Shown: positions 6,457-34,301 of the stretch, one piece after another
Position numbering within the stretch: position 1 is the stretch's first letter
Layout: each line of letters opens with the position of its first letter
Assembly: GCA_964349125.1 (NCBI GenBank)
Contig: CAYGFH010000003.1
Coordinates: forward strand, 17,501-81,500
Length of the DNA stretch: 64,000 nucleotides
DNA from: an uncultured Gammaproteobacteria bacterium
GTDB taxonomy: Bacteria > Patescibacteriota > Microgenomatia > UBA10105 > UBA927
Reading direction: 5' to 3'
Made by a program: the position numbers and the translations under genes
Notes under the pieces: model-generated
Told to the model about the DNA's origin: nothing
Databases searched by the model: none
What the model saw: only the letters and a program-made list of their open reading frames with translations

Positions 6457-6480
6457 ATTGCTTACATAAGTACACAAAAA

Positions 6481-7105: not shown

Positions 7106-7195
7106 TACTGAGAGAGGTCCGACATCACCAGGACCCGGTAACTTCGACACATATTTTCTGGAATGAAGAGGCTCTTGTGAGGTATACTACGATGT

Positions 7196-7711: not shown

Positions 7712-7743
7712 GGCAAGAGTGGTAAACTTGACCCATATGCCAC

Positions 7744-10402: not shown

Positions 10403-10910
10403 ACATTATCGGATCAATTATCAGATCACCAGCGCGGAACTCCGCGTGCTTGACGAAGACGGCAAGCAAATTGGTGTAATGAGCAAACTGGAAGCTCTCC
10501 AGAAAGCGAAAGAATTGAATTTTGATGTGGTTGAGGTAAATTCAAAAGCCAGTCCACCTGTCGCAAAGCTGATTGATTTTAAAAAGTTTAAATATCAGGA
10601 AGCCAAAAAAGAACGGGATAGCAAAAAGAATCAGAAAAATGTGGGAGTCAAAGAAATACGACTCCGACCGTTTATCGGCCAACATGATTTTGATACCCGG
10701 GTTGCCAAGGCAAACGATTGGTTAGCCCATGGCGATCAGGTGAAAATAGTGGTGTTTTTCAAGGGAAGAGAGATTACGAGAAAAGAATTTGGGTTTGAAG
10801 TCATGAAAAAACTCATGGCGGCACTCGGGGCTGTGAAAATAGTCCGGGAGCCAAGAATTGAAGGAAAAACGCTGACGGCCATGGTAATAGCCGATAAGAA
10901 GAAAGAATGA
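10386..10910 (+). CDS. infC: Translation initiation factor IF-3
   Basis: INYQITSAELRVLDEDGKQIGVM aligns with the IF-3 N-terminus. The gene overlaps the thrS stop, and its start is non-ATG (TTG at 10386, or in-frame ATA/ATC at 10392/10413), consistent with the unusual start codons known for infC. Confidence 0.85.
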   Translation: MSINFKHYRINYQITSAELRVLDEDGKQIGVMSKLEALQKAKELNFDVVEVNSKASPPVAKLIDFKKFKYQEAKKERDSKKNQKNVGVKEIRLRPFIGQHDFDTRVAKANDWLAHGDQVKIVVFFKGREITRKEFGFEVMKKLMAALGAVKIVREPRIEGKTLTAMVIADKKKE

Positions 10911-10957
10911 CAATATTCCTATACGGATATATTGATTTATAAAAAGAAAGTAGGAAC

Positions 10958-11155
10958 ATGACTAAGGTAAAAACAAAAAAAATTGTACGAAAACGATTTA
11001 AACTGACCAAGAACGGTAAGCTTGTCCATCGAGGACAGGGTGCACGACACATACGAAGCAAAAAGAGTAAGGCACGACAAAGAAGGCAGGACGCGCCACA
11101 TCAGGTAACAAATACCAGAATAGCCCGAAAGGTAAAACGATTTTTAGAAACTTAA
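10958..11155 (+). CDS. rpmI: 50S ribosomal protein L35
   Basis: MTKVKTKKIVRKRFKLTKNGKLVHRGQGARHIRSKKS is a typical L35 sequence. Confidence 0.85.
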   Translation: MTKVKTKKIVRKRFKLTKNGKLVHRGQGARHIRSKKSKARQRRQDAPHQVTNTRIARKVKRFLET

Positions 11156-11170
11156 GAAGGAGCATATATT

Positions 11171-11521
11171 ATGAGAGTTAAACGAGGAGTATCATCACAC
11201 GCAAAACATAAGAAATTGTTGGTAGCCAACAAAGGCTATCGCATGACAAAGCGCAGATTGGTCCGCGTGGCCAAGCAGGCGTATCTTCATGCTGGAGAAC
11301 ATGCATTTGCAGGTCGAAAACTCCGAAAGAGAGAATTCCGATCACTCTGGATTTCCAGAATATCAGAATCAGTGAAACAAAATGATATGACCTACAGTTT
11401 GTTCATAAATAAACTGAAAAAAGCCAATGTCGAAATTGATCGTAAAATGCTTGCGAACCTGATCATCGATCATCCGGAAGCATTTACCGCAGTGTTTAAT
11501 ACGGCAAAATCCGTACACTAA
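11171..11521 (+). CDS. rplT: 50S ribosomal protein L20
   Basis: MRVKRGVSSHAKHKKLL...AYLHAGEHAFAGRKLRKREFRSLWISRI is an L20 signature. Confidence 0.9.
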   Translation: MRVKRGVSSHAKHKKLLVANKGYRMTKRRLVRVAKQAYLHAGEHAFAGRKLRKREFRSLWISRISESVKQNDMTYSLFINKLKKANVEIDRKMLANLIIDHPEAFTAVFNTAKSVH

Positions 11522-11548
11522 CCCGCGGGATACATCCGACATACGAAA

Positions 11549-11572
11549 ATCCCGCTACGGCGGGATTTTTTT
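11549..11572 (+). terminator. Rho-independent terminator after rplT (ATCCCGC-TACG-GCGGGAT followed by TTTTTTT)
   Basis: A perfect 7 bp stem with a tetraloop and a T7 run sits 28 nt after the rplT stop. Confidence 0.7.
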
Positions 11573-11665
11573 GTTGATCAGTTAGCAAGCGAATTCACAT
11601 TCGCCAGTTTACTGTCAACAATCCAGCAATGCTGGAATCTTTGATTACATAAGGCAAATGAATTC

Positions 11666-12727
11666 TTGATAATGCGGGGTTTGCAACATATACTTATGAA
11701 CATGACCGGCGATATTCTATCAGCGCAAAATATGCAAAGTTTACTCCTTGAAATACAGGGGAATGCACTGACTGAGATACATGCAGGGAAGAAATCAGCG
11801 GATATTTTACGAACCGAACTGCTCGGCTCCAAAAGTGAATTCACACGTGTGTCACGTAACATAGCACATATTCCAAAAGAGGATAAAGCGCAAATCGGTA
11901 TATTTATAAATCAGGTGAAGCAAAGCATAGAAGACGCAATTGGGAATATGGAGACAGGACCTGCCCAAAAGAGCCACGCAGAATGGGTGGATGTCACGAT
12001 GCCCGGTGTTCTCCCGATACAGGGACATTTGCACCCTACGACACTCGTCATACAGGAGATGAATCAAATATTTGCAAAAATGGGATTCAGTGTCGCCGAC
12101 GGACCGGAAATTGAGACGGATGAATACAACTACAACAGATTGAATCTGCCTCTTGATCATCCTGCGCGAGACCTGCAGGATTCACTCTATATTGAGGAAC
12201 CAAACTGGCTCCTTCGTACGCATACTTCCTCTGTAGAGAGCCACTTGTTAGCGGAAGTCGCCCCACCGTTTCGCTATGTCATCCCTGGGAAAGTGTACCG
12301 GTTTGAGAATGCAAATGCCACGAATAACATAATGTTTTACCAGTACGAGGGCATGGCGGTAGGCACTGATATTACGCTGGCACAACTCAAGGGCACTCTC
12401 GATCAGTTCGTAAAGCAATTTTTCGGATCGGACAGAGAAACCAGATTCCGCTGTAAGTATTACCCGCAAGTCGAGCCGGGTGTTGGGGTGGATATCAGCT
12501 GTATTTTTTGCGCAAAAAAAGGATGTACCGTCTGCAAAGGAAGAGGATGGATAGAGATGCTTGGAGCAGGGATGGTGCATCCGAATATGTTTACACGCGC
12601 CGGACTTGATCCCAATGTGTACTCGGGGTTCGCCTGGGGTATGGGCCTGGACCGAATCGTGATGCAGCGCTACGGTATCCGTGATATCCGTTCGTTATAT
12701 AACGGTGATATTGGGTATAGTGAATAA
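11666..12727 (+). CDS. pheS: Phenylalanyl-tRNA synthetase alpha subunit
   Basis: HPTTLVIQEMNQIFAKMGFSVADGPEIETDEYNYNRLNLPLDHPARD and the C-terminal FAWGMGLDRIVM are present. The start may be at 11666 or at a downstream ATG such as 11696. Confidence 0.9.
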   Translation: MIMRGLQHILMNMTGDILSAQNMQSLLLEIQGNALTEIHAGKKSADILRTELLGSKSEFTRVSRNIAHIPKEDKAQIGIFINQVKQSIEDAIGNMETGPAQKSHAEWVDVTMPGVLPIQGHLHPTTLVIQEMNQIFAKMGFSVADGPEIETDEYNYNRLNLPLDHPARDLQDSLYIEEPNWLLRTHTSSVESHLLAEVAPPFRYVIPGKVYRFENANATNNIMFYQYEGMAVGTDITLAQLKGTLDQFVKQFFGSDRETRFRCKYYPQVEPGVGVDISCIFCAKKGCTVCKGRGWIEMLGAGMVHPNMFTRAGLDPNVYSGFAWGMGLDRIVMQRYGIRDIRSLYNGDIGYSE

Positions 12728-12730
12728 TAT

Positions 12731-14755
12731 ATGAATGTACCATTGGATTGGCTAAAAGACTATGTAAAACTTCCGAAAACGGAAGTCGAGTTAACGGATA
12801 AACTGACCATGGTTGGTCATATGCTGGATAAACGGAAAGAAGTCGCAGGACAGGTCGTTATTGATCTGGAGCTTCGGGGAAATAGGGCGGATATGTTCGG
12901 ACTAATCGGGGTGGCGCGTGATATGTCCGCCATATTTAAAACTCCGCTACACTTACCCAAAATAGCGTCGCTGCCGAAGACTGATCCAACCAGCCCGCTC
13001 GTTAAGGCTGAATCAAGCGTAAAAGGATTAGTGAAGCGGTATATTGCAGTCAAACTGAATGTCGTCGTGGCACCGTCGCCAAAATGGTTGGCGGACAGAC
13101 TGGGGGCCTATGGAATAGAGCCAATAAACAACGTGGTGGATGTCACTAATTATGTCATGATTGAAACCAGTCACCCAATGCACGCCTTTGACTATGACTC
13201 ACTTGCCGGCGGCACGCTGCACCTTCGCCGAGCAAAACACCATGAATCGTTTGATACAATTGCGCAAGGGACAACACTTCGGCTCACTGCCGAAGATATT
13301 GCCATTTGTGACACAAAGATAGTGCAGTGCCTTACCTGCATTGGCGGGGCGGCATCAAAGGTGACGGAGAAAACCAACACTATACTTCTGGAAACGGCTG
13401 TGTATGATGCTGCATCCAGCAGAAGAACAGCACGCAGACATAAAGTCGCTACGGAGAGCGGTAACCGCCATGAAAAACATCAGGACCCCGAAGAACTGCC
13501 GTTTGCACTCGCCCGTGCGGTGGAACTTCTCAAAGACGTAGCCAACGCTTCAGTGCAGGGTAGTGTATCTGATTATTATCCGAATCCCGTTACGGCACTG
13601 ACTATTGATTTCTACCCGAAGACACTCAAAAGATTGGTGGGAATTGAAATACCCCAGAAAGAGATTACGTCGATTCTGGCCGCGCTTGGATTTCACGGGG
13701 AGATACACGGTGAAAAAATACAGGTTACTGTACCAACTTTTCGTACTGATATCTTACAAGAGGCAGATATAGTCGAGGAAATTATTCGAATTTACGGGTA
13801 CGAACGGATTCCGGTCCAGACCCTGTCTGGTGAATTACCCAGAGTGAGTACACCGGCTCATATCCTATTCCAAGAAAAAATCAGAATAGCACTCCACACG
13901 CTCACACTCAACGAAGTGATTACCTCTTCACTTCTTGCCAATGCGGGTATATCTACATTTGAAACTCACGGCAAGTTTGATCCACATATTACGCTTATCA
14001 ATGCACCCGACCCGGAAATTTCAGCGCTTCGACCTTCGTTGTTACCAAACTTGCTTGAATATGCGAAGCATAGTCTGGGATATAGACAACAGCGCATTTC
14101 GTTATTTGAAATAGGCAACATTTACACTCAGCCAATACCAAAGCACTACGCGGAAGCTATGAGTGTCGGGATGATTATGGGAGGGTTGACACCGTCATCG
14201 TGGAGCAGACCATCACAACCGCTCACATTTTTTGATCTCAAAGGTGTAGTGGAAGCACTGCTTTCACAACTCGGCATACAAACAAACATGAAGCCTATAA
14301 GTACACATCCGAGTCTGTCACACCCGAGCTTGAGTATATACGTCGGAAAAACTATTGTGGGTCACATAGGTCAAATTGACGCGAGCATATTGAAACTGTA
14401 TGGCATCACAGACCCCATGTACTACGGCGAACTGTCTGTTAAAAGCCTTCAGGACGTGCCATCCCAGAACGAGCAGCCGTACACGATAGCTCCCCTCTAT
14501 CCTCCTATTCTGGAAGACTTCTCATTCACAGTGCCTGATCAGTTTGAAATCGGGCCATGTATCACTGCCTTATCTGCCATCCACCCCTCTATAGAGTCCA
14601 TACAGTTATTGGATGTGTACCAGAATAAACGTATGCTTCGTGTTACGTACAGTAACCCTGCAAAAACGTTGTCAAATGAAGATATTGCTCCTGTCCGGAA
14701 AAAATTGATTGCTCTAGCCCAGGAAAAATTTTCACTCATCCTTAAAACAGCATAA
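12731..14755 (+). CDS. pheT: Phenylalanyl-tRNA synthetase beta subunit, short form lacking the N-terminal EMAP/Trbp111-like tRNA-binding domain
   Basis: The N-terminus aligns with the bacterial PheT start, then jumps directly to the B3/4 region (NRADMFGLIGVARDMSA). The protein is 674 aa against about 795 for canonical bacterial PheT. B5 and FDX-like anticodon-binding regions are present. Confidence 0.85.
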   Translation: MNVPLDWLKDYVKLPKTEVELTDKLTMVGHMLDKRKEVAGQVVIDLELRGNRADMFGLIGVARDMSAIFKTPLHLPKIASLPKTDPTSPLVKAESSVKGLVKRYIAVKLNVVVAPSPKWLADRLGAYGIEPINNVVDVTNYVMIETSHPMHAFDYDSLAGGTLHLRRAKHHESFDTIAQGTTLRLTAEDIAICDTKIVQCLTCIGGAASKVTEKTNTILLETAVYDAASSRRTARRHKVATESGNRHEKHQDPEELPFALARAVELLKDVANASVQGSVSDYYPNPVTALTIDFYPKTLKRLVGIEIPQKEITSILAALGFHGEIHGEKIQVTVPTFRTDILQEADIVEEIIRIYGYERIPVQTLSGELPRVSTPAHILFQEKIRIALHTLTLNEVITSSLLANAGISTFETHGKFDPHITLINAPDPEISALRPSLLPNLLEYAKHSLGYRQQRISLFEIGNIYTQPIPKHYAEAMSVGMIMGGLTPSSWSRPSQPLTFFDLKGVVEALLSQLGIQTNMKPISTHPSLSHPSLSIYVGKTIVGHIGQIDASILKLYGITDPMYYGELSVKSLQDVPSQNEQPYTIAPLYPPILEDFSFTVPDQFEIGPCITALSAIHPSIESIQLLDVYQNKRMLRVTYSNPAKTLSNEDIAPVRKKLIALAQEKFSLILKTA

Positions 14756-16022: not shown

Positions 16023-18609
16023 GAGTGGGTGATGCGTACGGTGTATTTACACCAATATGCCGTTCAGCGTCTGCGGTCTTACCTGCTTCATCAGTAACCT
16101 TTGCCCGAATAACGTGTGATCCGTTGGGTATGTTGAGGGTCTCTGTGAATTTTGCATCGGAGCGCTCTTTTACCTTTGTCCCATCGACAAACAGTTCAAC
16201 TTTGGATATAGAACGCATACTTGATGCTTCTATTTTGAACGTCACATCGTTGGAATTCACCTGTGCTCTCTCATCAGGCTCACGAAATGCGATATTTATT
16301 TCTTCTCCTCCCGCGTATGTTTCCTTTGGCGGATGATATTTACTGTCTCCCTGTGTGGCTATCCACGCGTCGATACCTTCCTGCCATCGGTTTTTGTTAT
16401 CGCCTGATACGGGATCGCTTTCTGTGAATACAATAAACTTTTTGAGATCATACTCACCTTTGTTAATCTCCACAGAATTTGCAAGTTTATTATTTTCCTT
16501 CCGGGAAACTTTTATGGTCTGATAAATGGGGGATGCATTGGTCGGTTCGGTTCCCCTAATAAATCTCTCTTTCCGAGTCGGACTTCCTTCCACCGGTTGC
16601 CCGCCGCTTAACGCATCGATATCCATTTCCAATATCGAATCAGGTCGTACAAACGGTTCATCGGATTTACCTTTGAGTGCCTCCTGAATAATACGATTCC
16701 ATATGGGAGCCGCGCCTGTTATACCTGACGCAAGTGTCTGGCTCATGGGAGAATTGTCATTATTGCCAACCCAGGCACCCACCACAACAGACGGTGTGTA
16801 CCCGATGGTCCAGTTATCTCGTTTATCATCGGTGGTACCTGTTTTTACCCCTACGGATTTACCCGGAATAACAAGGTATGATTTTGGTCCGAATACCTCT
16901 TTGCGTGCATCGTTGTCAGACAACATATCATTGATAAGATACGCAATGTCATCAGCCATGACTGACCGAAGGGGAGGCGCTTTGTACTGATAGAGCACGG
17001 CGCCCTTGGAATCCTCTACCTTTAATATCGACACCGGGTCTATTCGTTTTCCTTCTGTGGCAAACACTCCAAATGCACTCGTCAAATCAAGAAGGGTAAC
17101 CTCACCGCCACCCAGCGTGAGTGACAATCCTATGCGTTTGAGATTTTCATCAGTGGGCTCAAGTGTTGGCAGCCCCATATCGTACGCGAGGCGAAGCACA
17201 TCTTTGACTCCAACCAGCGCGCTGAGCTTTACCGCCACCGTGTTTATGGAGTTACCCAGTGCATAGCGAAGTGTCACGGGCCCCATAAATTTGCCGTTAT
17301 AATTTTTTGGATTATATTCTGGCTTCTTGGGGTCACCTGACGGATATTTTGTATCCACATCCATAAGCAGGGAAGCCGCTGTGTAGCCTTTCTTGAGAGC
17401 TGCTGCGTAGGTGATCGGTTTGATTGTTGATCCAGGTTGCCGAAGTCCTTGTGTGACAACATTAAATTTAAATCCGCTGCTATCGGTCGCACTGTAATCC
17501 TTAGAACCCACCATAGCGAGTATCTCGCCGGTTCTTGGGTCCAAGACCACGGCAGCGCCATTTGATACCTTAAGATTTTTGGCTTTCGTTACCTCTTCCT
17601 TTACGATGCCTTGGGATTTTTCCTGCAGCTTCCAATCCAATGTCGTGGTAACTCTGAGGCCACCACCTTCAACTTTACTCGCACCGAATTTTTCGACCAG
17701 CTGTTCCTTGATGTACGCGATAAAATGAGGAGCCTTGAGACTGTCTGAATCTTCCGCAAATTTAATAGTTTCCAGTTGTTTTTTTGCATCGGCTTCCTGT
17801 GTCGGGGTGATATATCCGTCTTCACGCATACGGCGAAGTACCTGCTCCGTGCGCCACACGTACGCTTTGGGGACACCGCTGAACGGTGAATACTGAGAAG
17901 GGGATTGCGGTAATCCAGCGAGGATCGCGCTTTCAACCAATCCTAAACCTTTTACCGGTTTATTAAAATAATACTGTGATGCTGATTCGACGCCTACTGC
18001 AGTACCGCCGTATGGAGCTTCATTGAGATACATGAGGAGAATATCATCTTTCTTATACTTACGCTCTATCTGGATAGAGAGTATAGCTTCCTTTATCTTT
18101 CGCGGCAGTGACCGTTCGTTAGTTAACAGTACATTTTTTACCAGCTGTTGCGTGAGAGTGGATCCTCCCTGGCAGCGGTGCAGTACCACACATGCCAATG
18201 CTCCTCGCGTGATTCCTGCGATGGAAAATCCCTGGTGTTTGTAGAAATCCTTATCCTCGACTGCAATAGTGCCTAGTTTTAGATAATTTGGAATATCCTC
18301 ATACTTCACCGGCAATCTATTTTGATCCTGATAAATGTCGTAAAGTGTTTCGCCATTTCTATCCAATATTACTGTAGATAATCCGTCCGTTCGGCGAACT
18401 TTATCCGGTCTGGGCAGATCTTTCGCATACCAGGCAAACAGTATTCCAACGCCCAGCATACCGACAACGAGTGCTCCGAACGCTACAACGGCAATGGTTG
18501 CCCACGTAGCGGTTTTGATTTTGTGGTACCCAATTACTTTTTGTAATTGCCGTTTATTGAAGACATCGAGCATATAGATTATTGTAGGCCGATTTGACCG
18601 ATTTGACAA
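15994..18609 (-). CDS. Class A penicillin-binding protein (PBP1A-type transglycosylase/transpeptidase) with a C-terminal Ig-like extension and a Pro/Thr tail
   Basis: It has an N-terminal TM helix. The GT51 motifs are EDKDFYKHQGFS, GGSTLTQQLVKN and RKIKEAILSIQIERKY. The transpeptidase motifs are STIKP, SxN and KTGT. The C-terminus is PYASPTPTETPSPTP. Confidence 0.85.
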   Translation of the reverse strand: MSNRSNRPTIIYMLDVFNKRQLQKVIGYHKIKTATWATIAVVAFGALVVGMLGVGILFAWYAKDLPRPDKVRRTDGLSTVILDRNGETLYDIYQDQNRLPVKYEDIPNYLKLGTIAVEDKDFYKHQGFSIAGITRGALACVVLHRCQGGSTLTQQLVKNVLLTNERSLPRKIKEAILSIQIERKYKKDDILLMYLNEAPYGGTAVGVESASQYYFNKPVKGLGLVESAILAGLPQSPSQYSPFSGVPKAYVWRTEQVLRRMREDGYITPTQEADAKKQLETIKFAEDSDSLKAPHFIAYIKEQLVEKFGASKVEGGGLRVTTTLDWKLQEKSQGIVKEEVTKAKNLKVSNGAAVVLDPRTGEILAMVGSKDYSATDSSGFKFNVVTQGLRQPGSTIKPITYAAALKKGYTAASLLMDVDTKYPSGDPKKPEYNPKNYNGKFMGPVTLRYALGNSINTVAVKLSALVGVKDVLRLAYDMGLPTLEPTDENLKRIGLSLTLGGGEVTLLDLTSAFGVFATEGKRIDPVSILKVEDSKGAVLYQYKAPPLRSVMADDIAYLINDMLSDNDARKEVFGPKSYLVIPGKSVGVKTGTTDDKRDNWTIGYTPSVVVGAWVGNNDNSPMSQTLASGITGAAPIWNRIIQEALKGKSDEPFVRPDSILEMDIDALSGGQPVEGSPTRKERFIRGTEPTNASPIYQTIKVSRKENNKLANSVEINKGEYDLKKFIVFTESDPVSGDNKNRWQEGIDAWIATQGDSKYHPPKETYAGGEEINIAFREPDERAQVNSNDVTFKIEASSMRSISKVELFVDGTKVKERSDAKFTETLNIPNGSHVIRAKVTDEAGKTADAERHIGVNTPYASPTPTETPSPTP

Positions 18610-18851
18610 CCTTATGATATGATCCTTTATACAAGTTAATAGAAATGCATTGATGGAGATTCAAGTAGACTGTATACAGTGACACATGAGAGAGCAGGCG
18701 GTTGGTGCAAGACCTGACGAATGTATACGGATCGAAATACCCTCCTGAGCATCCCGACGAACAAACACGAGTAGTCGAGGACGGGTATGCCCGTAACAGC
18801 ACTATACTGTGTTGCCTTTTGCAAAGCAGTGAATGAAGGCTATGGATCAAT

Positions 18852-18877
18852 AACCCGCCTCCGGCCGGGTTTTTTTG
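18852..18877 (+). terminator. Intrinsic terminator-like hairpin (CCCGCC-TCC-GGCCGGG) followed by T7
   Basis: A GC-rich hairpin at 18852-18869 is followed by TTTTTTT at 18870-18876. It is on the plus strand although no plus-strand CDS ends here, which implies an untranslated plus-strand transcript. Confidence 0.5.
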
Positions 18878-18920
18878 TACATAGCGAAGTAAGGTGGTAC
18901 CGTCCTCTTTTATAAGAGAA

Positions 18921-18965
18921 CCCTTATATTCACCCCGTTTTGGGGTGTGTATAAGGGTTTTTTTA
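18921..18965 (+). terminator. Second compound hairpin plus U-run, 16 nt upstream of the RBS of the PRTase-like gene. It looks like an attenuator or expression platform.
   Basis: CCCTTATA...ACCCCG-TTTT-GGGGTG...TATAAGGG is followed by TTTTTTTT at 18958-18965. GGAGG at 18972-18976 and the ATG at 18981 follow. Confidence 0.45.
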
Positions 18966-18980
18966 TTATTTGGAGGATAT

Positions 18981-20036
18981 ATGAATACTATTTTTTGGAT
19001 GACAGATGAATTGTTTGCCAAATCCAGGGCAGAAGATTGGAATGCGGTAAAAAAGGCAAGTGAGGAGTTGATTTCTCTGATAGGGAATGAACGTTTCTCT
19101 CACACTATAATTTCGCCTGATAGCTGTATAGGACCGCTTGTACGATCACTTGCAGGTCATCAGTTTAGTGCTGTCGTTGATTTGACTGACAACGGATGGT
19201 TATCTCAGGGGCTTGAGAGTGCACTCTCGCGCGGTACGCCGATTATAACTGATCTCCATATCAGCCGCGTGAGAGAGATCAGTGATCCAACACTCCCCAC
19301 GTCGGGGCATATAGTTCGCACACCACTTGAAGATGTCGTGAGCCTCAGGCAGACTGTTGATTTTTCCCGATCGCTGATACTTGACGATGTATCATTTAGC
19401 GGCAAGAGCAGTGAGTTAGTTATGAGAATATTGGGTCTGGATCCGAGACACACAACCCACGGCTTTCTGATAACAAATACAGGAGACTTGGGGCCTAAAA
19501 CAGACGGAGCGTGGTCCCGGCTGTCAAAAGAAGGCGCAAGGATTCATACTGGGGCGGTCATAAATACTTCGGAAGGTGACGACGGATGGCACATCAAGGA
19601 TTTTGTCCGACATGAACATTTGGATCGTGCTCTCGGGCTTATTCCGGTTATCCACGAACTTTTCAAAGATTCGCGTGGAAATAGAGATATGCTCCAGATG
19701 CTTTTTTCGATGGATTGTACCCGATCCTTATTGTTTCCACACGCGGTTTCTGGTGGAGCCCTCGCAGGGGTGGACGAAGCACAATTTATACGTACAGCGC
19801 AGTTTAGAGGTGAGGGAATGCATACAACAAATCCGAACCTGCTTACATCACCTGCGTTCCTGGAACATATATCGACCGATTCATTCGCGCGACATATCAA
19901 TGAGGTCAGCGATATACTGAATGGCATACAGCAGCTGACAAATCTTCCGGAGGGTAACCGTGATTCGATCGAGGGAATACGTCGTATCGTGGAATCAGAA
20001 CTTCATCAGTCTTCACCAGAAAGAAGGCAACTATGA
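18981..20036 (+). CDS. Phosphoribosyltransferase-like (PRTase-fold) protein with N- and C-terminal extensions
   Basis: LILDDVSFSGKSS matches the PRPP-binding motif (hydrophobic x4-DD-V-x-[ST]-G-x-[ST]) of type I PRTases. The start is set at the ATG at 18981 with a GGAGG SD. The six-frame ORF start at 18894 is an upstream extension that spans the terminators. At 352 aa it is much longer than a canonical PRTase. Confidence 0.4.
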   Translation: MNTIFWMTDELFAKSRAEDWNAVKKASEELISLIGNERFSHTIISPDSCIGPLVRSLAGHQFSAVVDLTDNGWLSQGLESALSRGTPIITDLHISRVREISDPTLPTSGHIVRTPLEDVVSLRQTVDFSRSLILDDVSFSGKSSELVMRILGLDPRHTTHGFLITNTGDLGPKTDGAWSRLSKEGARIHTGAVINTSEGDDGWHIKDFVRHEHLDRALGLIPVIHELFKDSRGNRDMLQMLFSMDCTRSLLFPHAVSGGALAGVDEAQFIRTAQFRGEGMHTTNPNLLTSPAFLEHISTDSFARHINEVSDILNGIQQLTNLPEGNRDSIEGIRRIVESELHQSSPERRQL

Positions 20037-20884
20037 ACCCTGAATTGATTCATATTCCGGAACAGCAGCGTCACAAGCCGCAGATCTTTCTTTGTGATTT
20101 TGATATGACACTTGCGCATGTATATGCGTTTTCGCCGACATGGCAAACACATGTGCCGGTACTGGACCATGAGTTGGTGAGTATGTTGACGGTGCCTGAC
20201 CAATTACTCTGTATCGCGACAGCCAGAGGAGCCAGGGAACCTGTCTCATGGGTAATCGGTCACAGACTTCTTGATCCGAAGGTCCCACTCGTCGTAGAAA
20301 ACGGCGCAGCGCTCTTGTGGAACAGAACTGCTCTATCAAAGCCACCTGCTATTGAACTGCTTATCACTGACCAAGAAGCAACGTTGATTGAGCAGCTAGG
20401 GCGCGATATACAATCAGTGATCCACACCATACCCGCAGTGTCAAAGGATCATGCGGTGCTTATGCGTCCGAATAGGGTAGCATCCATTGAGCTTCGCGCC
20501 GAACACAAAAATACGCACCACGGAACTCCCCAAGAGTACGGGAATATATCCGATTTTCTGCTGACACAGTTCCCGGAAATCGAAACACTGTGCACCATCT
20601 CGACGACAGGAAGTTCGCTGACCATAGAACCAAAGTCGGCAGACAAGAAAGCCGGGATACTTGCTGCGATGAAGCGGGCACATATTGATACAGCAGTAGT
20701 ATTTCCTATCGCTCTTGGAGATAACAGGAATGATACCCCACTGTTTACCCTTGCAAGGGAAATGGGCGGAATTGCCATAGGAGTTTCCACGGACGTTGAC
20801 AAAAGCGCGTGTGATCTCGTTTTTGAAGCAGGAGAGGCGACTACAAAACAAATCGTACAACACATTCAATCACTCTGCCTATGA
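20033..20884 (+). CDS. HAD-superfamily phosphatase (IIB-like)
   Basis: Motif I is DxDxT in LCDFDMTLA, and motif IV is GDxxND in LGDNRNDTPLF. It overlaps its neighbours in ATGA fashion, indicating translational coupling. Confidence 0.6.
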   Translation: MNPELIHIPEQQRHKPQIFLCDFDMTLAHVYAFSPTWQTHVPVLDHELVSMLTVPDQLLCIATARGAREPVSWVIGHRLLDPKVPLVVENGAALLWNRTALSKPPAIELLITDQEATLIEQLGRDIQSVIHTIPAVSKDHAVLMRPNRVASIELRAEHKNTHHGTPQEYGNISDFLLTQFPEIETLCTISTTGSSLTIEPKSADKKAGILAAMKRAHIDTAVVFPIALGDNRNDTPLFTLAREMGGIAIGVSTDVDKSACDLVFEAGEATTKQIVQHIQSLCL

Positions 20885-21783
20885 CAACTTTTTTACTGGA
20901 TACAGACATAGGTACAGATGTGGATGATGCACTCGCTCTTTGCTTTATGCTGGAGAAAAAATCGAAACGATTGCTGGGTGTGATCACCACAAATGGGCCG
21001 ACGAAAACTCGTGCACAGATTGCCAAAACTATTCTGGGACTCAAAGGTTTCCTGCGCATACCCGTATTTCGCGGACAATCAACTGCTCGCACGAACGGTA
21101 TTACCCCATTTGTGACCGGTAACGAGTCTATTGGGATTGAGAGTCAGTCGCATGCATTCCCACTGCGATCGATCCTTCCGTTAATACTTTCCGAGCCCGA
21201 TGGTAGCATTGTGTATATTCTGATTGCTCCCGCTTCCACATGTTCAGCGCTACTGGAAATACCTATGATTCGAAAGAAAATAAAATCTGTAGTGATTATG
21301 GGTGGCGTCATCGCATCTGATCCGACAAAACCCAAGCAAGAGCACAATATCGCGGCCGACCCTGCGTCTTTTTCACGAATATGTGCGTTTCGGATACCTG
21401 TTTTTCTCGTTCCGTTGAACCTGACGCTACCGCACGTATTTCCCGAACGTGCGATTGAAGAGATTTCCCGGTCAGGCTTGCCGCTTGCATCAAAGATGCA
21501 TCTTTGGATTAAACTATGGCGCTCATTTACCCTCACGTTTGGTGAGAAAGACCATTGGTTTAAAAATCGCGTCCTCTTGCACGACCCCATCACTTGCATT
21601 GCCGCCATGCGTAAAAGCGCATTTAGGTGGCAGGATATGGCCGTGACAACGACGCAGGAAGGAGAACTAAAGATAGGGAAAGGTGGCACCGTACGAATTG
21701 CCACAGCAATAAAAAGAGGCGAAATTGCCAAACTGATATCACAGGTTGTATCGAGTATAGTTACGCATAAAAATATGGTATAG
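20881..21783 (+). CDS. Inosine-uridine preferring nucleoside hydrolase family protein
   Basis: The N-terminal LLDTDIGTDVDDALALCF carries the DxDxxxDD Ca2+-binding signature of IU-nucleoside hydrolases. Confidence 0.8.
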   Translation: MTTFLLDTDIGTDVDDALALCFMLEKKSKRLLGVITTNGPTKTRAQIAKTILGLKGFLRIPVFRGQSTARTNGITPFVTGNESIGIESQSHAFPLRSILPLILSEPDGSIVYILIAPASTCSALLEIPMIRKKIKSVVIMGGVIASDPTKPKQEHNIAADPASFSRICAFRIPVFLVPLNLTLPHVFPERAIEEISRSGLPLASKMHLWIKLWRSFTLTFGEKDHWFKNRVLLHDPITCIAAMRKSAFRWQDMAVTTTQEGELKIGKGGTVRIATAIKRGEIAKLISQVVSSIVTHKNMV

Positions 21784-21794
21784 TAGGAAGAATT

Positions 21795-22997
21795 ATGGAT
21801 GATATTGAACGATTACTGACACGGGGAGTTGATACGGTTTATCCGACCCGAAAGGCGCTAGAGGAGGTCCTTCGTTCCGGTAAGAAATTGACGCTCTACC
21901 AGGGGTTTGATCCGACAGGCACACAGTTGCACATAGGTCACATGGTTGGATTTCGAAAGCTACGACAATTTCAGGACCTAGGACACCATGTAATTTTCCT
22001 GATAGGGGATGGTACGGGGTTGGCTGGTGATCCATCCGGCAAAATGAAAGCACGTGGACGGTTCATGACCCGAGAGGAATTGCGCGATAATGCGAAAGCG
22101 TACCTGATGCAGGCCGGAAAAATTGTACGATTTGATGGAGAGAATCCTGTTGAAATACGATATAACGGGGATTGGCTCACAAAGCTGCAACTTCAGGATA
22201 TCCTCGATCTTGCAGGACATTTTACGGTGCAGCAGATGATCGAACGGGATATGTATCAGGTTCGTCTCAAGGCGAATGAACCCATTAACCTTCGCGAATT
22301 TTTATACCCACTACTTCAGGGATACGATTCTGTCGCGATGGATGTGGATTTGGAGCTCGGCGGGAGTGACCAAATGTTTAACATGCTTGCAGGCCGTACG
22401 CTTATGAAAGCGATGAAAGGCAAAGAGAAATTTGTCATGACAGCGCCGTTACTAGCTGATGCGAAGGGAGTAAAGATCGGCAAGTCAGAAGGCAATGTCA
22501 TAGGACTTATAGATGCACCCTCTGATTTCTATGGCAAAATTATGTCTCTCGGCGATGATGCCATCCTACCGTGCTTTACACTACTCACAGATACCGAACC
22601 GGGTGAACTTGATCAAATAAGGACAGCTATTGCCACAGGAACACAAAATCCTATGGTATTTAAAAAACGCCTTGCGTTTGAACTGACAAAAGCCCTCAAT
22701 ACAGAAGCTGATGCGACACAGGCCCAACTCGATTTTGAAACCAGGTTTCAAAAAGGTGATGCGGCTGGAAGTAACATACCGGAAATTGCATTGTCGACGC
22801 TTCCTTTGGATGGAACTCTTATTGACTACCTGGTTGCCGTACAATTCGCCAAAAGTAATTCTGACGCGAGACGTCTAGTGGAACAAAACGCTGTTAAGTA
22901 CAATGATACAGTCATGCATAATCCCAAAGTGCCTATGCATATAAAACCCGGTGATATATTCCAAGCCGGGAGAAAAGCTGTTAAGATAACCGCATAA
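21795..22997 (+). CDS. tyrS: Tyrosyl-tRNA synthetase
   Basis: YQGFDPTGTQLHIGHMVGF is the HIGH motif, KIGKSEGN is the KMSKS-like motif, and a C-terminal S4-like domain is present. Confidence 0.85.
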   Translation: MDDIERLLTRGVDTVYPTRKALEEVLRSGKKLTLYQGFDPTGTQLHIGHMVGFRKLRQFQDLGHHVIFLIGDGTGLAGDPSGKMKARGRFMTREELRDNAKAYLMQAGKIVRFDGENPVEIRYNGDWLTKLQLQDILDLAGHFTVQQMIERDMYQVRLKANEPINLREFLYPLLQGYDSVAMDVDLELGGSDQMFNMLAGRTLMKAMKGKEKFVMTAPLLADAKGVKIGKSEGNVIGLIDAPSDFYGKIMSLGDDAILPCFTLLTDTEPGELDQIRTAIATGTQNPMVFKKRLAFELTKALNTEADATQAQLDFETRFQKGDAAGSNIPEIALSTLPLDGTLIDYLVAVQFAKSNSDARRLVEQNAVKYNDTVMHNPKVPMHIKPGDIFQAGRKAVKITA

Positions 22998-27198: not shown

Positions 27199-27882
27199 AT
27201 GCAAATTAGCGTTATAACACTATTCCCACAGATGTTCGAGCAGGTCTTTTCCCAATCGATAATCAAGCGAGCTCTCAGCAAAAATCACGTATCTATTTCG
27301 TATATCGCTCTACGACAATTTGCAACGGATGCGTATGGATCTGTTGATGATCGACCATACGGCGGGGGACATGGTATGGTTCTGCGCGTTGATATTCTAG
27401 ATAACGCTATAGAATTTGCCAAAAACTCTATGAAGGCGCCCCACGTCCATACCGTACTTTTGGACGCATCGGGCACACCGTACAAGCAAAAAATCGCGCA
27501 GACGCTTGCAAGCCGGGACAGTATGATACTTGTGTGCGGGCATTACGAAGGAGTAGACGCCCGTGTTTTTTCTCTCGTTGATGAATGTATTTCCATCGGG
27601 GATTATGTATTGACCGGAGGTGAAATTCCCGCAATGGTACTTATAGACAGTGTTGTAAGGTTGCTTCCCGGTGTTCTTTCTAAAGAAATAGCGACACAGG
27701 ATGAGTCATTTTCTGCTGATGAAAAGCTTTTGGAGTATCCACAATACACGAGGCCTGATGATTATAAATCCATGAAAGTACCTGAAATACTTCTAAGAGG
27801 AAATCATGGCGAAATCGCCAAATGGAGAAAAGCGAAAGCCGCTGAAAAAACAGTCAAATACAGGCCTGATCTTACAAGCTAA
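27199..27882 (+). CDS. trmD: tRNA (guanine37-N1)-methyltransferase
   Basis: MQISVITLFPQMFE...GGGHGMVLRVD...LVCGHYEGVDARV is a TrmD SPOUT signature. Confidence 0.9.
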   Translation: MQISVITLFPQMFEQVFSQSIIKRALSKNHVSISYIALRQFATDAYGSVDDRPYGGGHGMVLRVDILDNAIEFAKNSMKAPHVHTVLLDASGTPYKQKIAQTLASRDSMILVCGHYEGVDARVFSLVDECISIGDYVLTGGEIPAMVLIDSVVRLLPGVLSKEIATQDESFSADEKLLEYPQYTRPDDYKSMKVPEILLRGNHGEIAKWRKAKAAEKTVKYRPDLTS

Positions 27883-28624
27883 ATGGATCTTCGCGTTGGA
27901 TAGTTTCAACAGGTATTACGCTTTCTTCGTTGGCTACAGGAATGCTGTCCTTTCCAAGCACGGGCATATTCACTACCCGCTCGATTACCGCTTGATCACT
28001 TTCAGTTAACGATTCCACTACTTGAGAAGCTGATCCTAGGTTTGTCGGCAGTGGCGCATAGTAGGCATCCATGCCCATATGTACGGAGAAAGTTTCTTTT
28101 TGATCAAAACTGATGGAAAAATGTCTTATTCTGAAAAACCGACGTACTAATACCGACCGCTCAATAAACGTACGAATTTGATCGTATGTGCCAGTCACAG
28201 TCAGTGTAAATGGCAGGAAGCTACTACCTACCTTACGTTCATCATTTGTGAGTCTCTTGGCAGACTCAGTTGCTATAGAACCCGGTTTTGTCAGCATGAA
28301 GTTCGAGAGTGTCACACCGGTTTCTTGACTAAGCCCGTCAATTGTTGCAAACACTGACGTGAGCGACTTGTCAGTCGGAACAGCAAATGATAATTCTGTT
28401 AAATATGACTTGTATGTTTCTTCATCTATGCTCTCAAGAATGGATACTTTTTGTCGAAGAACAGTAATTTGGTTCGTTAAATCAATCACATTTTTACGCA
28501 TAGAAATAATCGATGTAAACGCGGGCAATATGCCGGCAAAAACACCAATTACGATAATTACAATGATGATAAAAGATACCCCAAATCCCTGATATCGTTT
28601 TATTAACCGTTTATATGAGTTCAT
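27872..28624 (-). CDS. pilO: Type IV pilus assembly protein PilO-like
   Basis: It has an N-terminal TM helix, a coiled-coil region and a periplasmic domain. Its position downstream of the pilM-pilN homologs fits the canonical pilMNO order. Confidence 0.55.
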   Translation of the reverse strand: MNSYKRLIKRYQGFGVSFIIIVIIVIGVFAGILPAFTSIISMRKNVIDLTNQITVLRQKVSILESIDEETYKSYLTELSFAVPTDKSLTSVFATIDGLSQETGVTLSNFMLTKPGSIATESAKRLTNDERKVGSSFLPFTLTVTGTYDQIRTFIERSVLVRRFFRIRHFSISFDQKETFSVHMGMDAYYAPLPTNLGSASQVVESLTESDQAVIERVVNMPVLGKDSIPVANEESVIPVETIQREDPFSL

Positions 28625-29178
28625 AATGTCGTAAATACCGCATAAAATGATATGGCTATTTCAAAATCTCCTGTTTTTAAAATTTGAAACGATACCAATT
28701 GGGGGTTTTTGATTTTATTTGTCTCTGTATTTAGTTTCATAGCGTCAACTATTCGTAAAATATCTTCCAAGGAATCACTTCTTATAATAAGAGCAATCTT
28801 GTCCTGCTCGTCAACTGTGATTGAAGATAGAAACGGGGGCGCTACGAACGAGCTAACCAAGTTAAGCATTTGAATCCACGGTTTTTGGTTTCCGAGTGCC
28901 TTTTCTACTGTTTTTGTCCTATCTTTAATTGCTAATAAATATGCTTCTTTATTTTTGAGTGAATTCACCCGTGTAATCAGATCAGCCTTTTCTGCTTCTT
29001 CCCGATTTTGCTGATAAAAGTATAGACCATACACGCTGGCTGTTATAACCGCTACACAAATAAATCCAATCAGCGCGAAAATAGCGGCCTTACGCACGCT
29101 TGCATCAATTGCGTCTATCTCGGGTGATGCATTCGCCTGCGTATGAATTAAATTGATAGTATGTTGATTTGCAGCCAT
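28621..29178 (-). CDS. pilN: Type IV pilus assembly protein PilN-like
   Basis: A single TM helix (AAIFALIGFICVAVITASVYGLYF) is followed by a coiled coil. There is a 4 nt overlap with pilO. Confidence 0.55.
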   Translation of the reverse strand: MAANQHTINLIHTQANASPEIDAIDASVRKAAIFALIGFICVAVITASVYGLYFYQQNREEAEKADLITRVNSLKNKEAYLLAIKDRTKTVEKALGNQKPWIQMLNLVSSFVAPPFLSSITVDEQDKIALIIRSDSLEDILRIVDAMKLNTETNKIKNPQLVSFQILKTGDFEIAISFYAVFTTL

Positions 29179-29198
29179 ACCGATTTACAGTCTCAGTG

Positions 29199-30218
29199 TC
29201 AGCGCAGCGCAAGGCCGACGGCGATGCTGAAGTTTGCCCCTTCTGTATTCAAGACATTAAATCTCGCATCCTTAGCAATACCTACCCATGGGTTCGCGAG
29301 TTGCACCTCACAATTGAGGGCTTGTGCCATGTATATAACCATTCCGGGAAGTCTTGCGGTACCGCCACTTAATATAACGGTATCGACATGTTCTTCTTTG
29401 TATTTCTCAGAGTAAAAAGCCATTGCGCGCTTTATTTCCTGAATAATTGTATCCATGATTGGTTTGGCTGCAGCAATAATTTTTCCTTCAAGTTTATCCT
29501 GTTGTAATCCATACGCTCGCTTATATTCCTCCGCTTGCGTCAGATTGAAATCCAAATTCTGAGCAATAGCGCGAGTGAGTGCTTCACCTCCCGTGCTAAC
29601 AGACCTCGTGAACATCAATATACCGGAGCGCAGGATCGCTATATCTGTTGAGAGCGCACCAAGTGATACAATCATAACCGTGCGAACGTTCGGAAGCGAT
29701 CTACCGACAGCGCGTGAAGTTGCGATAATTTCAGTTTCGGCCGATACAGCATTTAGCTCTGCCAGCTCCATAATGCTGACGTATTTATCTACTAGCGCCT
29801 TTGGTGCTGCCACCAACAGCACTTCCATTTTATTTGTTTGGGTATTCTTACCATCCTGTAACACAGTAAAATCGACATTTACCTGATCCAAGGGCAATGG
29901 AATATACTGCTCCGCTTCCCATTTGATAGCGGAAGTAAGCTCACGCGGCGAAAGTTGTGGCACTTCGATGACGCGTGTAAATACTTTCGACTCGGGTAAA
30001 GCTAAATTTACTGTGCGGGTTTTTGTGCCGGTGCTTTGGATAAGTTGCTTTATAGCAACAGCCAGTGACTCTGTATCTGCCTGCAAAGATGAGGTGAGAG
30101 CTTTTTGCGGAGTGGGCATACTTCCCGCCGCCACAAGTGCAACCTGATCTCCTTCACGGGCGAGCTCAATCAGTTTTATTGAATGTGATCCGATGTCCAA
30201 TCCGGCAATAGTATTCAT
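29199..30218 (-). CDS. pilM: Type IV pilus assembly ATPase-fold protein PilM
   Basis: It has an actin-like fold. The N-terminus is MNTIAGLDIGSHSIKLIEL and the second domain carries VDIGALSTDIAI. Confidence 0.8.
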   Translation of the reverse strand: MNTIAGLDIGSHSIKLIELAREGDQVALVAAGSMPTPQKALTSSLQADTESLAVAIKQLIQSTGTKTRTVNLALPESKVFTRVIEVPQLSPRELTSAIKWEAEQYIPLPLDQVNVDFTVLQDGKNTQTNKMEVLLVAAPKALVDKYVSIMELAELNAVSAETEIIATSRAVGRSLPNVRTVMIVSLGALSTDIAILRSGILMFTRSVSTGGEALTRAIAQNLDFNLTQAEEYKRAYGLQQDKLEGKIIAAAKPIMDTIIQEIKRAMAFYSEKYKEEHVDTVILSGGTARLPGMVIYMAQALNCEVQLANPWVGIAKDARFNVLNTEGANFSIAVGLALR

Positions 30219-30233
30219 AGGGCAGTTTCGACA

Positions 30234-31094
30234 CTATTTTCGCAGTACTCCTTCACTATACAACGCAGCGTCAAATATTGTCGATGGGGAACGATACTGC
30301 TGGTAGACGATGATCTTCCTGTTCGTGCCACCCACTGTGGTACCTGTGGATTCTATAATGTATCCCTGAGCAGGTAGAATCGTTGCTCCAGCATCAACAA
30401 CGAGCTTGGAGTCGTAGTATACCGGTCGCAGACGCAACGCTATGAGAGTATCGACTGCAGGGTTAATCACTTCGGTAGGATTCATTGTTGCGAACGTCAC
30501 TGTTGCTCTATAGTCAGTTCCAGTAGTTCCTCCGCAGCCACCCACTGTGTAGGTTCCTGCGAAGTTATTTGCTGTTGTCCTGGAAACAGTATCCGGATCA
30601 AAAGTGGCTTTCGCCGTTTTATATATCCCTGCTTTCTTATATAAAAGCGTGGCCACAATTGCCGGAATTTCGGTCTCTGATTTTTTTGACCAGCAAAAAC
30701 TTATGGATCCTGATGTATATGTCGGCGTTTCCAGGAGATTACCATTTGATTGGTCATGGTCAACTAACCAAATTGTTTCGGTATTACCTTGTAGAGTTTT
30801 TTTGGGAAGCTCATACAGCCCTAGTGCACCACTCATGGTGGAAACATTAACGTTATATGATACACCAGCTGAAAGTGTAATCGTTCCATTGGTGCTAGAA
30901 GCGGAGAGAAGCGCTTGTTCGATACCTGCTTCAGCAGCACTAAACGCGCGTGCTGATTCTTCTACATCTCTTGTTATCGACGCATCATTTGTAGTACGCG
31001 ATATTAGGGATAACGCAACGGTAGTTGCTATAGCCAGTACTAAGAGTGTAATAAGCACAATTTGGCCAGAATTTTGTTCTTCCATATATTTCAT
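30234..31094 (-). CDS. Secreted/TM pilus-associated protein (PilX_N-like N-terminus), function unknown
   Basis: The N-terminus is MKYMEEQNSGQIVLITLLVLAIATTVALS and lacks a GFTLxE prepilin motif. The start is placed at the ATG at 31094. The track start at 31151 is a GTG inside the upstream gene end. Confidence 0.35.
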   Translation of the reverse strand: MKYMEEQNSGQIVLITLLVLAIATTVALSLISRTTNDASITRDVEESARAFSAAEAGIEQALLSASSTNGTITLSAGVSYNVNVSTMSGALGLYELPKKTLQGNTETIWLVDHDQSNGNLLETPTYTSGSISFCWSKKSETEIPAIVATLLYKKAGIYKTAKATFDPDTVSRTTANNFAGTYTVGGCGGTTGTDYRATVTFATMNPTEVINPAVDTLIALRLRPVYYDSKLVVDAGATILPAQGYIIESTGTTVGGTNRKIIVYQQYRSPSTIFDAALYSEGVLRK

Positions 31095-31137
31095 ATGTAT
31101 AAAATTATTGTAATAAGGTTCATCCGAATAATCAACC

Positions 31138-31698: not shown

Positions 31699-31705
31699 AT
31701 GTGCG

Positions 31706-33073: not shown

Positions 33074-33076
33074 ACG

Positions 33077-34254: not shown

Positions 34255-34301
34255 ACTACACTACTTGTCTTCACCTAGCAAAGCAATTACACTTAGTCAT
34301 C

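Follow-up and report, generated by a model that had tools for sequence, protein, structure and literature searches.

A tyrosine-specific T-box riboswitch appears to control a single transcription unit of four genes (18594-22997) in the 64,000-nucleotide stretch of contig CAYGFH010000003.1 (assembly GCA_964349125.1) that was analyzed here and is called the window; the genes encode, in this order, an unnamed protein designated X, a HAD phosphatase, a nucleoside hydrolase (NH), and tyrosyl-tRNA synthetase (TyrRS, gene tyrS). In the interpretation preferred here, held with a probability of about 0.6, this T-box-controlled four-gene unit ties the interconversion of a base, its riboside, and its ribotide to the charging of tRNA-Tyr. 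X is, judged by its structural model, a new and unnamed family with the fold of type I phosphoribosyltransferases (PRTases), an intact loop for phosphoribosyl pyrophosphate (PRPP), and a helical C-terminal domain; it is this PRTase-fold family within a T-box regulon that is new, the T-box and the enzyme families themselves being of known kinds. The literature searched held no description of the X family, of the operon, or of T-boxes in Patescibacteria. The original prediction for this DNA had described the operon, and that description stands; the T-box leader directly upstream of X had been missed. Coordinates are positions in the 64 kb window on the plus strand, and the labels L003 to L032 denote related loci, in which they refer to the locus named.

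The T-box Leader and Operon Structure

The spacer between the divergent gene for penicillin-binding protein PBP1 and X measures 370 nt and holds a full-length T-box leader (Table 1), which matches the Rfam family RF00230 with 80.1 bits (E = 1e-17 in a 600-nt scan and 1e-15 over the whole window) and folds with a z-score of -4.65. The UAC specifier for tyrosine occupies columns that are invariant in 12 aligned leaders, and it is present also in L029 and L030. Equally invariant across the aligned leaders is the UGGU bulge, which fits the ACCA end of a tRNA with discriminator A73; the discriminator is A in the tRNA-Tyr genes of L005, L017, and L031, in agreement with this bulge. The 5' arm of the terminator is the 3' arm of the antiterminator, and both alternative folds were obtained with ViennaRNA. 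The cognate specifier, the T-box sequence with its UGGN bulge, and the mutually exclusive antiterminator and terminator are all in place; only the curated bit score is not reached. Promoter-type sites in the region numbered 6, against 8.8 expected, so that the site preceding the leader is a candidate and not proof of a promoter.

The four genes follow the leader in close succession. The overlaps of the ATGA type at 20033 (CTATGAAC, X/HAD) and 20881 (CTATGACA, HAD/NH) and the position of tyrS 11 nt further on, all part of the original prediction, agree with the open reading frame (ORF) coordinates and the junction sequences; the NH gene ends in TAG, and the spacer to the ATG of tyrS reads TAGGAAGAATT. 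Since this gap leaves no space for a separate leader, tyrS can be reached from the T-box leader only through X, HAD, and NH. X overlaps the gene that follows it by 4 nt also in L009, L017, L005, L011, L029, L030, L031, and L032, and this recurrence in most relatives marks the overlap as a conserved feature rather than a product of chance.

The leader resembles the T-box leaders of aminoacyl-tRNA synthetase genes (RF00230), for example that of Bacillus subtilis tyrS, in its Stem I with UAC, its UGGU bulge, its antiterminator/terminator switch, and in having tyrS as a target. In contrast to these, tyrS of the window is the fourth gene, 2.8 kb past the terminator and behind three enzymes that are not known to belong to a T-box regulon; further differences are the Patescibacteria host, a GC-rich Stem III hairpin with a U-run, relatives that place a tRNA-Tyr gene under the T-box, and the score below the Rfam gathering threshold (GA). 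The Stem III hairpin recurs at the same position, with 5-7 U, in L003, L005, L007, L009, L010, L011, L013, L015, L017, and L022; its arms vary yet stay complementary (CCCGCC/GGCCGGG, ACCGAC/GTCGGT, CACCC/GGGTG, ATCCCC/GGGGAT), and it has the appearance of a further intrinsic terminator or of a pause site within the leader. In the minimum free energy structure of the terminator form, 18902-18908 (GUCCUCU) pairs with the Shine-Dalgarno region of X at 18972-18978 (GGAGGAU); by masking the initiation site of X, this pairing with GGAGG may add translational control.

A longer ORF beginning with GTG at 18894 (380 aa) was rejected as the gene for X, as its start falls inside the T-box leader and the ATG at 18981 has its own GGAGG. 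A PyrR-type attenuator site was likewise rejected; the match (23.6 bits, GA 54) is the T-box terminator hairpin. An Rfam scan over all 64 kb of the window found no second T-box, even though the window also carries thrS and pheST; these belong to a compact thrS-infC-rpmI-rplT-pheS-pheT cluster (8648-14755) for which, unlike for tyrS, no T-box or other Rfam leader was detected.

Table 1. Positions of the leader elements and genes of the operon in the window, and of tRNA-Tyr and pterin-4a-carbinolamine dehydratase (PCD) genes in related loci.
Feature	Position	Strand	Basis or remark
Candidate promoter, TTGACC-18 nt-TATGAT (with TG)	18594..18623	+	Consensus match only; 18 nt upstream of leader
T-box leader (RF00230), Tyr specifier, terminator included	18641..18964	+	Rfam match 18641-18928
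Specifier codon UAC (Tyr), Stem I specifier loop GAAAUACC	18738..18740	+	Covariance-model alignment
GC-rich hairpin and U-run nested in Stem III region	18852..18877	+	Seen in all 12 leaders
T-box sequence AAGGUGGUACCG, UGGU bulge at 18895-18898	18891..18902	+	Covariance-model alignment
Intrinsic terminator AACCCUUAUA...UAUAAGGGUU, then U7	18912..18964	+	ViennaRNA, -37 kcal/mol
Ribosome-binding site GGAGG for X	18972..18976	+	Sequence; 5-9 nt upstream of ATG 18981
X, 351 aa, first gene	18981..20036	+	ORF list
Predicted PRPP/ribose-5-phosphate loop of X, LILDDVSFSGKSS, residues 132-144	19374..19412	+	Conservation, hhalign
HAD-IIB (Cof-type) phosphatase, 283 aa	20033..20884	+	Start overlaps X stop (ATGA)
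Divergent IU-type nucleoside hydrolase (NH), 300 aa	20881..21783	+	Start overlaps HAD stop (ATGA)
tyrS, tyrosyl-tRNA synthetase, 400 aa	21795..22997	+	11 nt after NH
tRNA-Tyr(GUA) gene, L005	5878-5963		
tRNA-Tyr(GUA) gene, L017	4881-4967		
tRNA-Tyr(GUA) gene, L031	198-284		
PCD (PF01329), L029	5957-6199		Between SLOG4 and tyrS
PCD (PF01329), L030	3408-3743		Between SLOG4 and tyrS

Protein X

The assignment of X to the PRTase fold, proposed in the original prediction together with a structure prediction as its check, holds; the alignment-based AlphaFold model (pLDDT 91, pTM 0.89) has the five-stranded parallel-sheet alpha/beta core of type I PRTases, formed by approximately residues 1-210, followed by a predicted family-specific helical domain (approximately residues 210-351), and a regulator of the PyrR or ComF type is not favored. 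The length is 351 aa instead of the 352 aa first given. Both flanks of the PRPP motif had been regarded as unknown folds; since the approximately 140 residues of X that align to the PRTase fold are spread across the first 210 or so, the N-terminal 130-140 aa are the ordinary first half of the PRTase core, and it is the C-terminal helical domain that has a fold without a known match. APRT-like proteins were the best structural match, and PyrR and PurR ranked below the catalytic PRTases.

The predicted PRPP loop consists of a hydrophobic strand, two acidic residues, and a phosphate loop of small residues, and is placed where APRT and OPRT carry theirs; hhalign aligned residues 129-188 of X with residues 119-174 of Escherichia coli Apt, which comprise the PRPP loop and the next strand, and matched the motif of X to the Apt loop VLVVDDLLATGGT. 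Across 47 diverse members of the family, with identities down to 24%, D67, D135, G141, N166, G168, H204, D207, and P285 are invariant, and S95, R96, D136, S140, D201, and N284 are among the residues conserved in at least 90%; SRxR, DDGWHxxD, and NP stand out as conserved motifs of the family's own. This pattern looks like that of an active site, as would be expected of a PRTase-like enzyme that has a hood and a lid of its own.

At the sequence level, the family stands apart from known PRTases. Searches of Pfam, NCBIfam, and PDB sequences gave no match for X at limits as lax as E = 1-10; the only hint, from a profile search, was OPRT at E of approximately 1, and 13 of the 47 relatives matched PF00156 weakly (best E = 1.2e-4). 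X belongs neither to PF00156 nor to any named PRTase family of NCBIfam. In comparison to the type I PRTases APRT, XPRT, and OPRT (PF00156), where it has no significant match, X carries one more helix ahead of the PRPP strand, a 140-residue C-terminal helical domain, and motifs of its own.

PRTase folds also occur in regulators of the PyrR, PurR, and ComF kind, and X could in principle be a non-catalytic sensor that binds PRPP or a nucleotide and modulates the leader RNA, TyrRS, or its partner enzyme. This possibility is regarded as very improbable. X is an acidic protein (isoelectric point 5.6) in an acidic family (median 5.8 for 79 members), which does not agree with the basic surface of an RNA-binding regulator; the PRPP loop and approximately 15 polar residues are invariant or nearly so across members with 25% identity, as in an active site; Pfam searches found no helix-turn-helix or other nucleic-acid-binding domain, RNA-binding domains included; and the PyrR-site match in the leader is the terminator hairpin.

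Two further candidate functions were rejected. As a non-heme iron hydroxylase, X would need a conserved 2-His-1-carboxylate triad, which is not found, H204 being the sole invariant histidine of the family. A defense system composed of a PRTase and a SLOG protein was dismissed, given that PADLOC had no match for X, HAD, NH, or SLOG4 and that the neighbors are housekeeping genes.

Relatives of X and Their Partner Enzymes

A word-indexed search of 5.8 billion proteins yielded 38 relatives of X, and when 1.84 billion cluster representatives were searched exhaustively with a profile, 90 were found, none of which was a canonical PRTase, carried a Pfam domain, or had a name; most full-length members have approximately 300-370 aa. 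The metagenome pattern scan was based on alignment A1, the diverse alignment A2 being too divergent. The genome-borne relatives are recorded under metagenome-assembled genomes of the Microgenomates group and the Patescibacteria group. One of the loci, L009 (CAYSEV010000011.1), has the same order of PBP1, T-box, X, HAD, NH, tyrS, and recG as the window, with protein identities to the window of 60-88% for most genes and 48% for tyrS; its label, "uncultured Gammaproteobacteria bacterium", is probably wrong.

The 32 annotated loci, approximately 20 of them distinct, show three kinds of partner. In the window, L009, L017, and L021, X is followed by a HAD-IIB phosphatase and a divergent NH; in L003, L010, L013, L014, L012, and L024, by a HAD-IA phosphatase, whose best match is a sub-threshold one to pyrimidine 5'-nucleotidase, and a RihC-like NH; and in L005, L007, L011, L025, L029, L030, and L031, by one protein only, a LOG-superfamily member of the SLOG4/TIGR00725 type. 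In L032, SLOG4 is accompanied by a PfkB kinase and by a phosphatase of the HAD-IA type. Sequence identity between the two NH types is only 27%, and the two HAD types have no detectable similarity. HAD and NH together convert a nucleoside 5'-monophosphate (NMP) to base, ribose, and inorganic phosphate; LOG enzymes convert it to base and ribose 5-phosphate. Wherever downstream sequence exists, therefore, X is followed by an activity that, as predicted from the protein families at these approximately 20 distinct loci, removes ribose phosphate. Three non-homologous solutions at one operon position indicate that what X needs is a partner that strips off the (phospho)ribosyl group, the free base being the sole product that the three have in common.

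For the window itself, the families named in the original prediction were confirmed by matches to PF01156 (NH), PF08282 (HAD), and TIGR00234 (tyrS). NH matches PF01156 with 110 bits (GA 34.2, E = 2e-31) and carries the Asp cluster DTDIGTDVDD, with a two-residue insertion compared to DxDxxxDD, as well as E-H-N and HDP (residues 154 and 234, respectively); both the N-terminal Asp cluster and the Ca2+/ribose-site His-Asp are thus present. Its scores against the equivalogs RihA, RihB, RihC, and UriH (38-57 bits) lie below the cut-offs of 382-459, and substrate specificity is therefore not transferable. HAD matches PF08282 with its C-terminal part only (28.3 bits, GA 20.9), and has motif I as DFDMT at residue 22 and motif IV as GDNRND at residue 229; TIGR00099 and TIGR01484 match weakly, and the NCBIfam subfamily scores are far under their cut-offs. 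The tyrS product scores 322.8 bits (cut-off 113.8) and has the class I signatures HIGH and KIGKS (residues 46 and 227, respectively).

Taken together, the enzymes around X recall the adenine/cytokinin interconversion network, which consists of APRT, adenosine kinase, 5'-nucleotidase, IU-type nucleoside hydrolase, and LOG: a PRTase fold, the PfkB kinase of L032, HAD phosphatase, IU-type NH, and LOG-like SLOG4 all have their counterparts. In contrast to this network, the enzymes of the X loci are operonic, translationally coupled, and under amino-acid-linked control, and none of them reaches the cut-off of a characterized equivalog.

A second parallel is PpnN, a LOG-family nucleosidase under stringent control (bioRxiv 10.1101/2025.04.13.648610). 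In E. coli, PpnN couples an amino-acid-starvation signal to the cleavage of NMP to base and ribose 5-phosphate by a LOG-superfamily protein, and by analogy uncharged tRNA could turn on the cleavage of NMP to base and ribose or ribose 5-phosphate in the window, as a transcriptional counterpart of the ppGpp-activated enzyme that rebalances nucleotide pools or harvests pentose while X recaptures the bases. Such starvation-induced nucleotide breakdown would agree with the conservation of the NMP-to-base activity itself, whether by HAD and NH or by a LOG-like protein, with the glycolysis and sugar kinases of the window, which could use the pentose, and with the position of the L032 module next to an Lrp/AsnC-type regulator. 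It is nevertheless considered unlikely, since it leaves the choice of tyrosine and the presence of PCD in some operons unexplained, as well as the need for X, the most conserved and always the first gene. The systems also differ in that control is exerted by a T-box on transcription and not by ppGpp allosterically, the LOG-like partner is TIGR00725/SLOG4, the window uses HAD and NH, and a PRTase-like partner is obligatory.

Among the more distant loci, L032 (6197-9877, GCA_023270055.1) comprises a divergent gene for the Lrp/AsnC-type regulator, followed by X-like, HAD-IA, PfkB, and SLOG4 genes, and has no T-box; its X is the most distant homolog examined. Regulators of the Lrp/AsnC type typically sense amino acids. 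A tyrosine link at this locus was rejected, as the nearby class I synthetase is TrpRS and not TyrRS. L012 and L024, which belong to a Patescibacteria clade without T-box, carry, on the strand of X-HAD-NH and 0.4-0.5 kb ahead of these genes, a gene for a small DNA-binding protein of the methylguanine-DNA-methyltransferase type (PF01035; L012 4223-4609, L024 158-478), and in L024 a canonical LOG gene (TIGR00730) lies just downstream on the opposite strand.

The Tyrosine Connection

A tyrosine T-box lies upstream of X in every Microgenomates-type locus with upstream sequence (L003, L005, L007, L009, L010, L011, L013, L014, L015, L017, L022, L029, and L030; partial in L004 and L031), and the operon ends in tyrS in all T-box loci, even where the identity of X to the window protein has fallen to 25-30% (L029-L031). 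Additional genes within these operons point in the same direction. In L005/L006/L018-L020, L017, and L031, a tRNA-Tyr(GUA) gene is inserted between the T-box terminator and X, an arrangement in which the riboswitch would control the gene for its own ligand. In L029 and L030, the operon includes a PCD gene whose product has the complete motif E-x3-HHP...W...H...D; the L029 copy is truncated to 80 aa. The additions of tRNA-Tyr and PCD are tyrosine-specific. An ArgE/DapE-type M20 deacylase is encoded in the operons of L003, L013, L014, and L011, and next to the operon in the P0038 locus.

PCD recycles the pterin of phenylalanine hydroxylase. Its presence raises the question whether X and its partner make or recycle a cofactor of the pterin or aminopyrimidine type for the hydroxylation of phenylalanine to tyrosine, with PCD regenerating this cofactor, the M20 deacylase freeing tyrosine from acylated or peptide forms, and uncharged tRNA-Tyr inducing the entire set. 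HAD-IA and HAD-IIB phosphatases have both been recruited as ribitylaminopyrimidine-phosphate phosphatases in riboflavin synthesis, which would suit such a pathway, as would the sequence relationship of SLOG4/TIGR00725 to the molybdopterin (Moco) carrier protein. A regulatory precedent exists in the Bacillus cereus group, where phenylalanine 4-hydroxylase is under T-box control (PMC2494555), so that a tyrosine T-box acts on the pterin-dependent route from phenylalanine to tyrosine, and PCD in L029 and L030 is a shared element. In contrast to this system, the window operon has no PCD, and no examined locus showed a phenylalanine hydroxylase, a GTP cyclohydrolase, or a pterin reductase; PCD and M20 occur in subsets of the loci only, and neither occurs in the operon of the window. 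In addition, many bacteria of the candidate phyla radiation (CPR) are anaerobes, whereas the hydroxylase needs O2, and no pterin route is known to use a type I PRTase. A role of X in tyrosine supply is for these reasons viewed as rather unlikely.

The tRNA-Tyr gene directly upstream of X in three operon variants suggests another tyrosine-related function, the salvage of a modified base for tRNA-Tyr, such as queuine (Q34) or isopentenyladenine (i6A37), in which HAD and NH or SLOG4 would free the base and X would handle it. QueK, a hydrolase of the IU family, releases queuine. Qng1, the queuosine-5'-monophosphate glycosidase, is a known queuine-releasing enzyme (PMC9881137). QueK and Qng1 set a precedent for cleaving the riboside or ribotide of the tRNA-Tyr wobble base to the free base, and LOG enzymes one for cleaving i6A-type ribotides. 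Yet T-boxes sense charging and not modification, Q is found also in tRNA-Asp, tRNA-Asn, and tRNA-His, all examined loci lacked tgt, queA, and transporter genes, Qng1 (DUF2419) is unrelated to SLOG4, and queuine salvage is not known to involve a PRTase; modified-base salvage is accordingly held to be decidedly unlikely.

Further observations concern individual loci. In L031, X starts 1-2 nt past the 3' end of the tRNA (ACC-T-ATG); as no ribosome-binding site fits into this space, the mRNA may be leaderless or depend on processing. In L011, a 251-aa protein (5448-6203) is encoded between X and SLOG4, and the M20 deacylase follows; the protein had no Pfam, NCBIfam, or PDB match and appears GNAT-like by eye (Q-G-L-G-L-A), hinting, together with M20, at an acylation/deacylation pair. 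In L014, a sub-threshold match to the Phe leader peptide (3352-3467, RF01859, 50 bits, GA 55) lies 1.2 kb upstream of the tyrosine T-box, possibly by chance.

Proposed Mechanism and Its Alternatives

In the preferred interpretation of T-box-controlled base, riboside, and ribotide interconversion, uncharged tRNA-Tyr would pair through its GUA anticodon with the UAC specifier and through its free ACCA end with the UGGU bulge; tRNA binding would stabilize the antiterminator, and RNA polymerase would pass the terminator at 18912-18964 into X, HAD, NH, and tyrS. We infer this tRNA-driven read-through from canonical T-box anatomy. X would then combine a base (or pre-base) with PRPP to a ribotide, HAD would convert the ribotide to a riboside, and NH would split the riboside into free base and ribose, with the free base as common output and the chemistry tied to the charging signal of tRNA-Tyr.

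The original prediction had read the same enzymes as a nucleoside and nucleotide scavenging module; the families on which it was based stand, and the purpose is probably described incompletely, the setting being tyrosine-specific. As a full alternative, ordinary scavenging would have HAD act as a 5'-nucleotidase, NH free common bases and ribose, and X re-attach a common purine or pyrimidine to PRPP, and the position behind the T-box would be an accident of gene order. CPR bacteria depend on salvage, and the families fit the classical network of base, riboside, and ribotide, with an APRT-like best structural match for X, HAD-IA variants nearest to pyrimidine 5'-nucleotidase, NH variants nearest to RihC and RihA, a PfkB kinase that joins the module in L032, and distant homologs that keep the module without T-box or tyrS. 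However, X lies outside the named salvage PRTase families and is limited to approximately 90 clusters, a narrow spread that a universal need would not explain; the cycle would be futile on one base; T-box and tyrS are kept down to 25% identity of X, and tRNA-Tyr and PCD were separately inserted in the same operon; and thrS and pheST of the window have neither T-box nor such passengers. Ordinary scavenging is thus a possible but not a favored explanation. The tyrosine-specific company of tyrS, tRNA-Tyr, and PCD makes a compound for making or using Tyr-tRNA-Tyr about equally likely as an ordinary base, and roughly equal weight is accordingly given to an ordinary nucleobase or starvation role on the one hand and to a tyrosine- or tRNA-Tyr-specific compound on the other.

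As a caveat, several points count against a T-box-controlled interconversion of this kind. The leader of the window scores below the GA of 93 because of insertions in the linker and in Stem III, and a default Rfam scan at this threshold misses it; orthologous leaders in L010 (110.3 bits) and L015 (98.2 bits) score above. A promoter-like match inside the 3' end of the NH gene (21733-21761), weak and statistically unremarkable, could give tyrS partly independent transcription. It is solely the fold and the motif that suggest the use of PRPP by X, and its pyrophosphate-loop and base-binding residues are unmatched in known PRTases. The distant L012, L024, L025, and L032 keep HAD and NH or SLOG4 but have neither T-box nor tyrS; the T-box link is lineage-bound, and the link to tyrosine could accordingly reflect operon hitch-hiking that synteny has maintained. 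Finally, X, HAD, and NH acting on one unmodified base would constitute a futile cycle, so that either a step is missing or the direction has been misread. One of three conditions must therefore hold: X may take a precursor that is altered while ribose phosphate serves as its handle; the form on which the partners act may be another one that comes in, for example as a modified nucleotide taken from outside; or the purpose may be a regulated pool in which the base-to-nucleotide ratio is adjusted.

A further reading, tentative and of modest likelihood, is a new phosphoribosyl pathway in which X and its stripping partner would provide a base or cofactor for making tyrosine or using it. The result would be a full "tyrosine sufficiency" regulon of these ultra-small bacteria, based either on pterin-dependent hydroxylation of phenylalanine with PCD or on a base specific to tRNA-Tyr, in which the pathway, tRNA-Tyr, and TyrRS would be switched together by uncharged tRNA-Tyr.

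Implications and Genomic Setting

T-box regulons are a guide to function, as almost all genes behind a T-box contribute to providing the cognate aminoacyl-tRNA. In Patescibacteria, a deeply conserved tyrosine T-box operon holds an unnamed PRTase-fold family with an obligatory partner activity in three non-homologous forms, and this replacement of partners points to a defined series of reactions in organisms for which metabolism is deduced largely from what they lack. The identity of the substrate could reveal a new route from nucleotide-type chemistry to tyrosine or tRNA-Tyr; alternatively, T-boxes could act as general starvation switches for nucleotide metabolism. A T-box in control of the gene for its own ligand, as in the relatives with tRNA-Tyr, would be an unusual regulatory circuit. 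The X family forms a new, well-delimited entry for databases of the Pfam type, and the operon context makes its reaction experimentally approachable.

The remainder of the window, with glycolysis, the Leloir pathway, and compact clusters of ribosomal and aminoacyl-tRNA synthetase genes, is typical of Microgenomates/Patescibacteria. Two regions (33-8331 and 27872-43021) encode a giant surface protein with SpaA/SdrD repeats, accompanied by two sortases, and a cluster resembling type IV pili and type II secretion systems (T2SS), which includes PilM, a prepilin peptidase, several N-methyl pilins, two T2SSE ATPases, and T2SSF; surface protein/sortase and pilus clusters of this kind are typical of epibiotic Patescibacteria.

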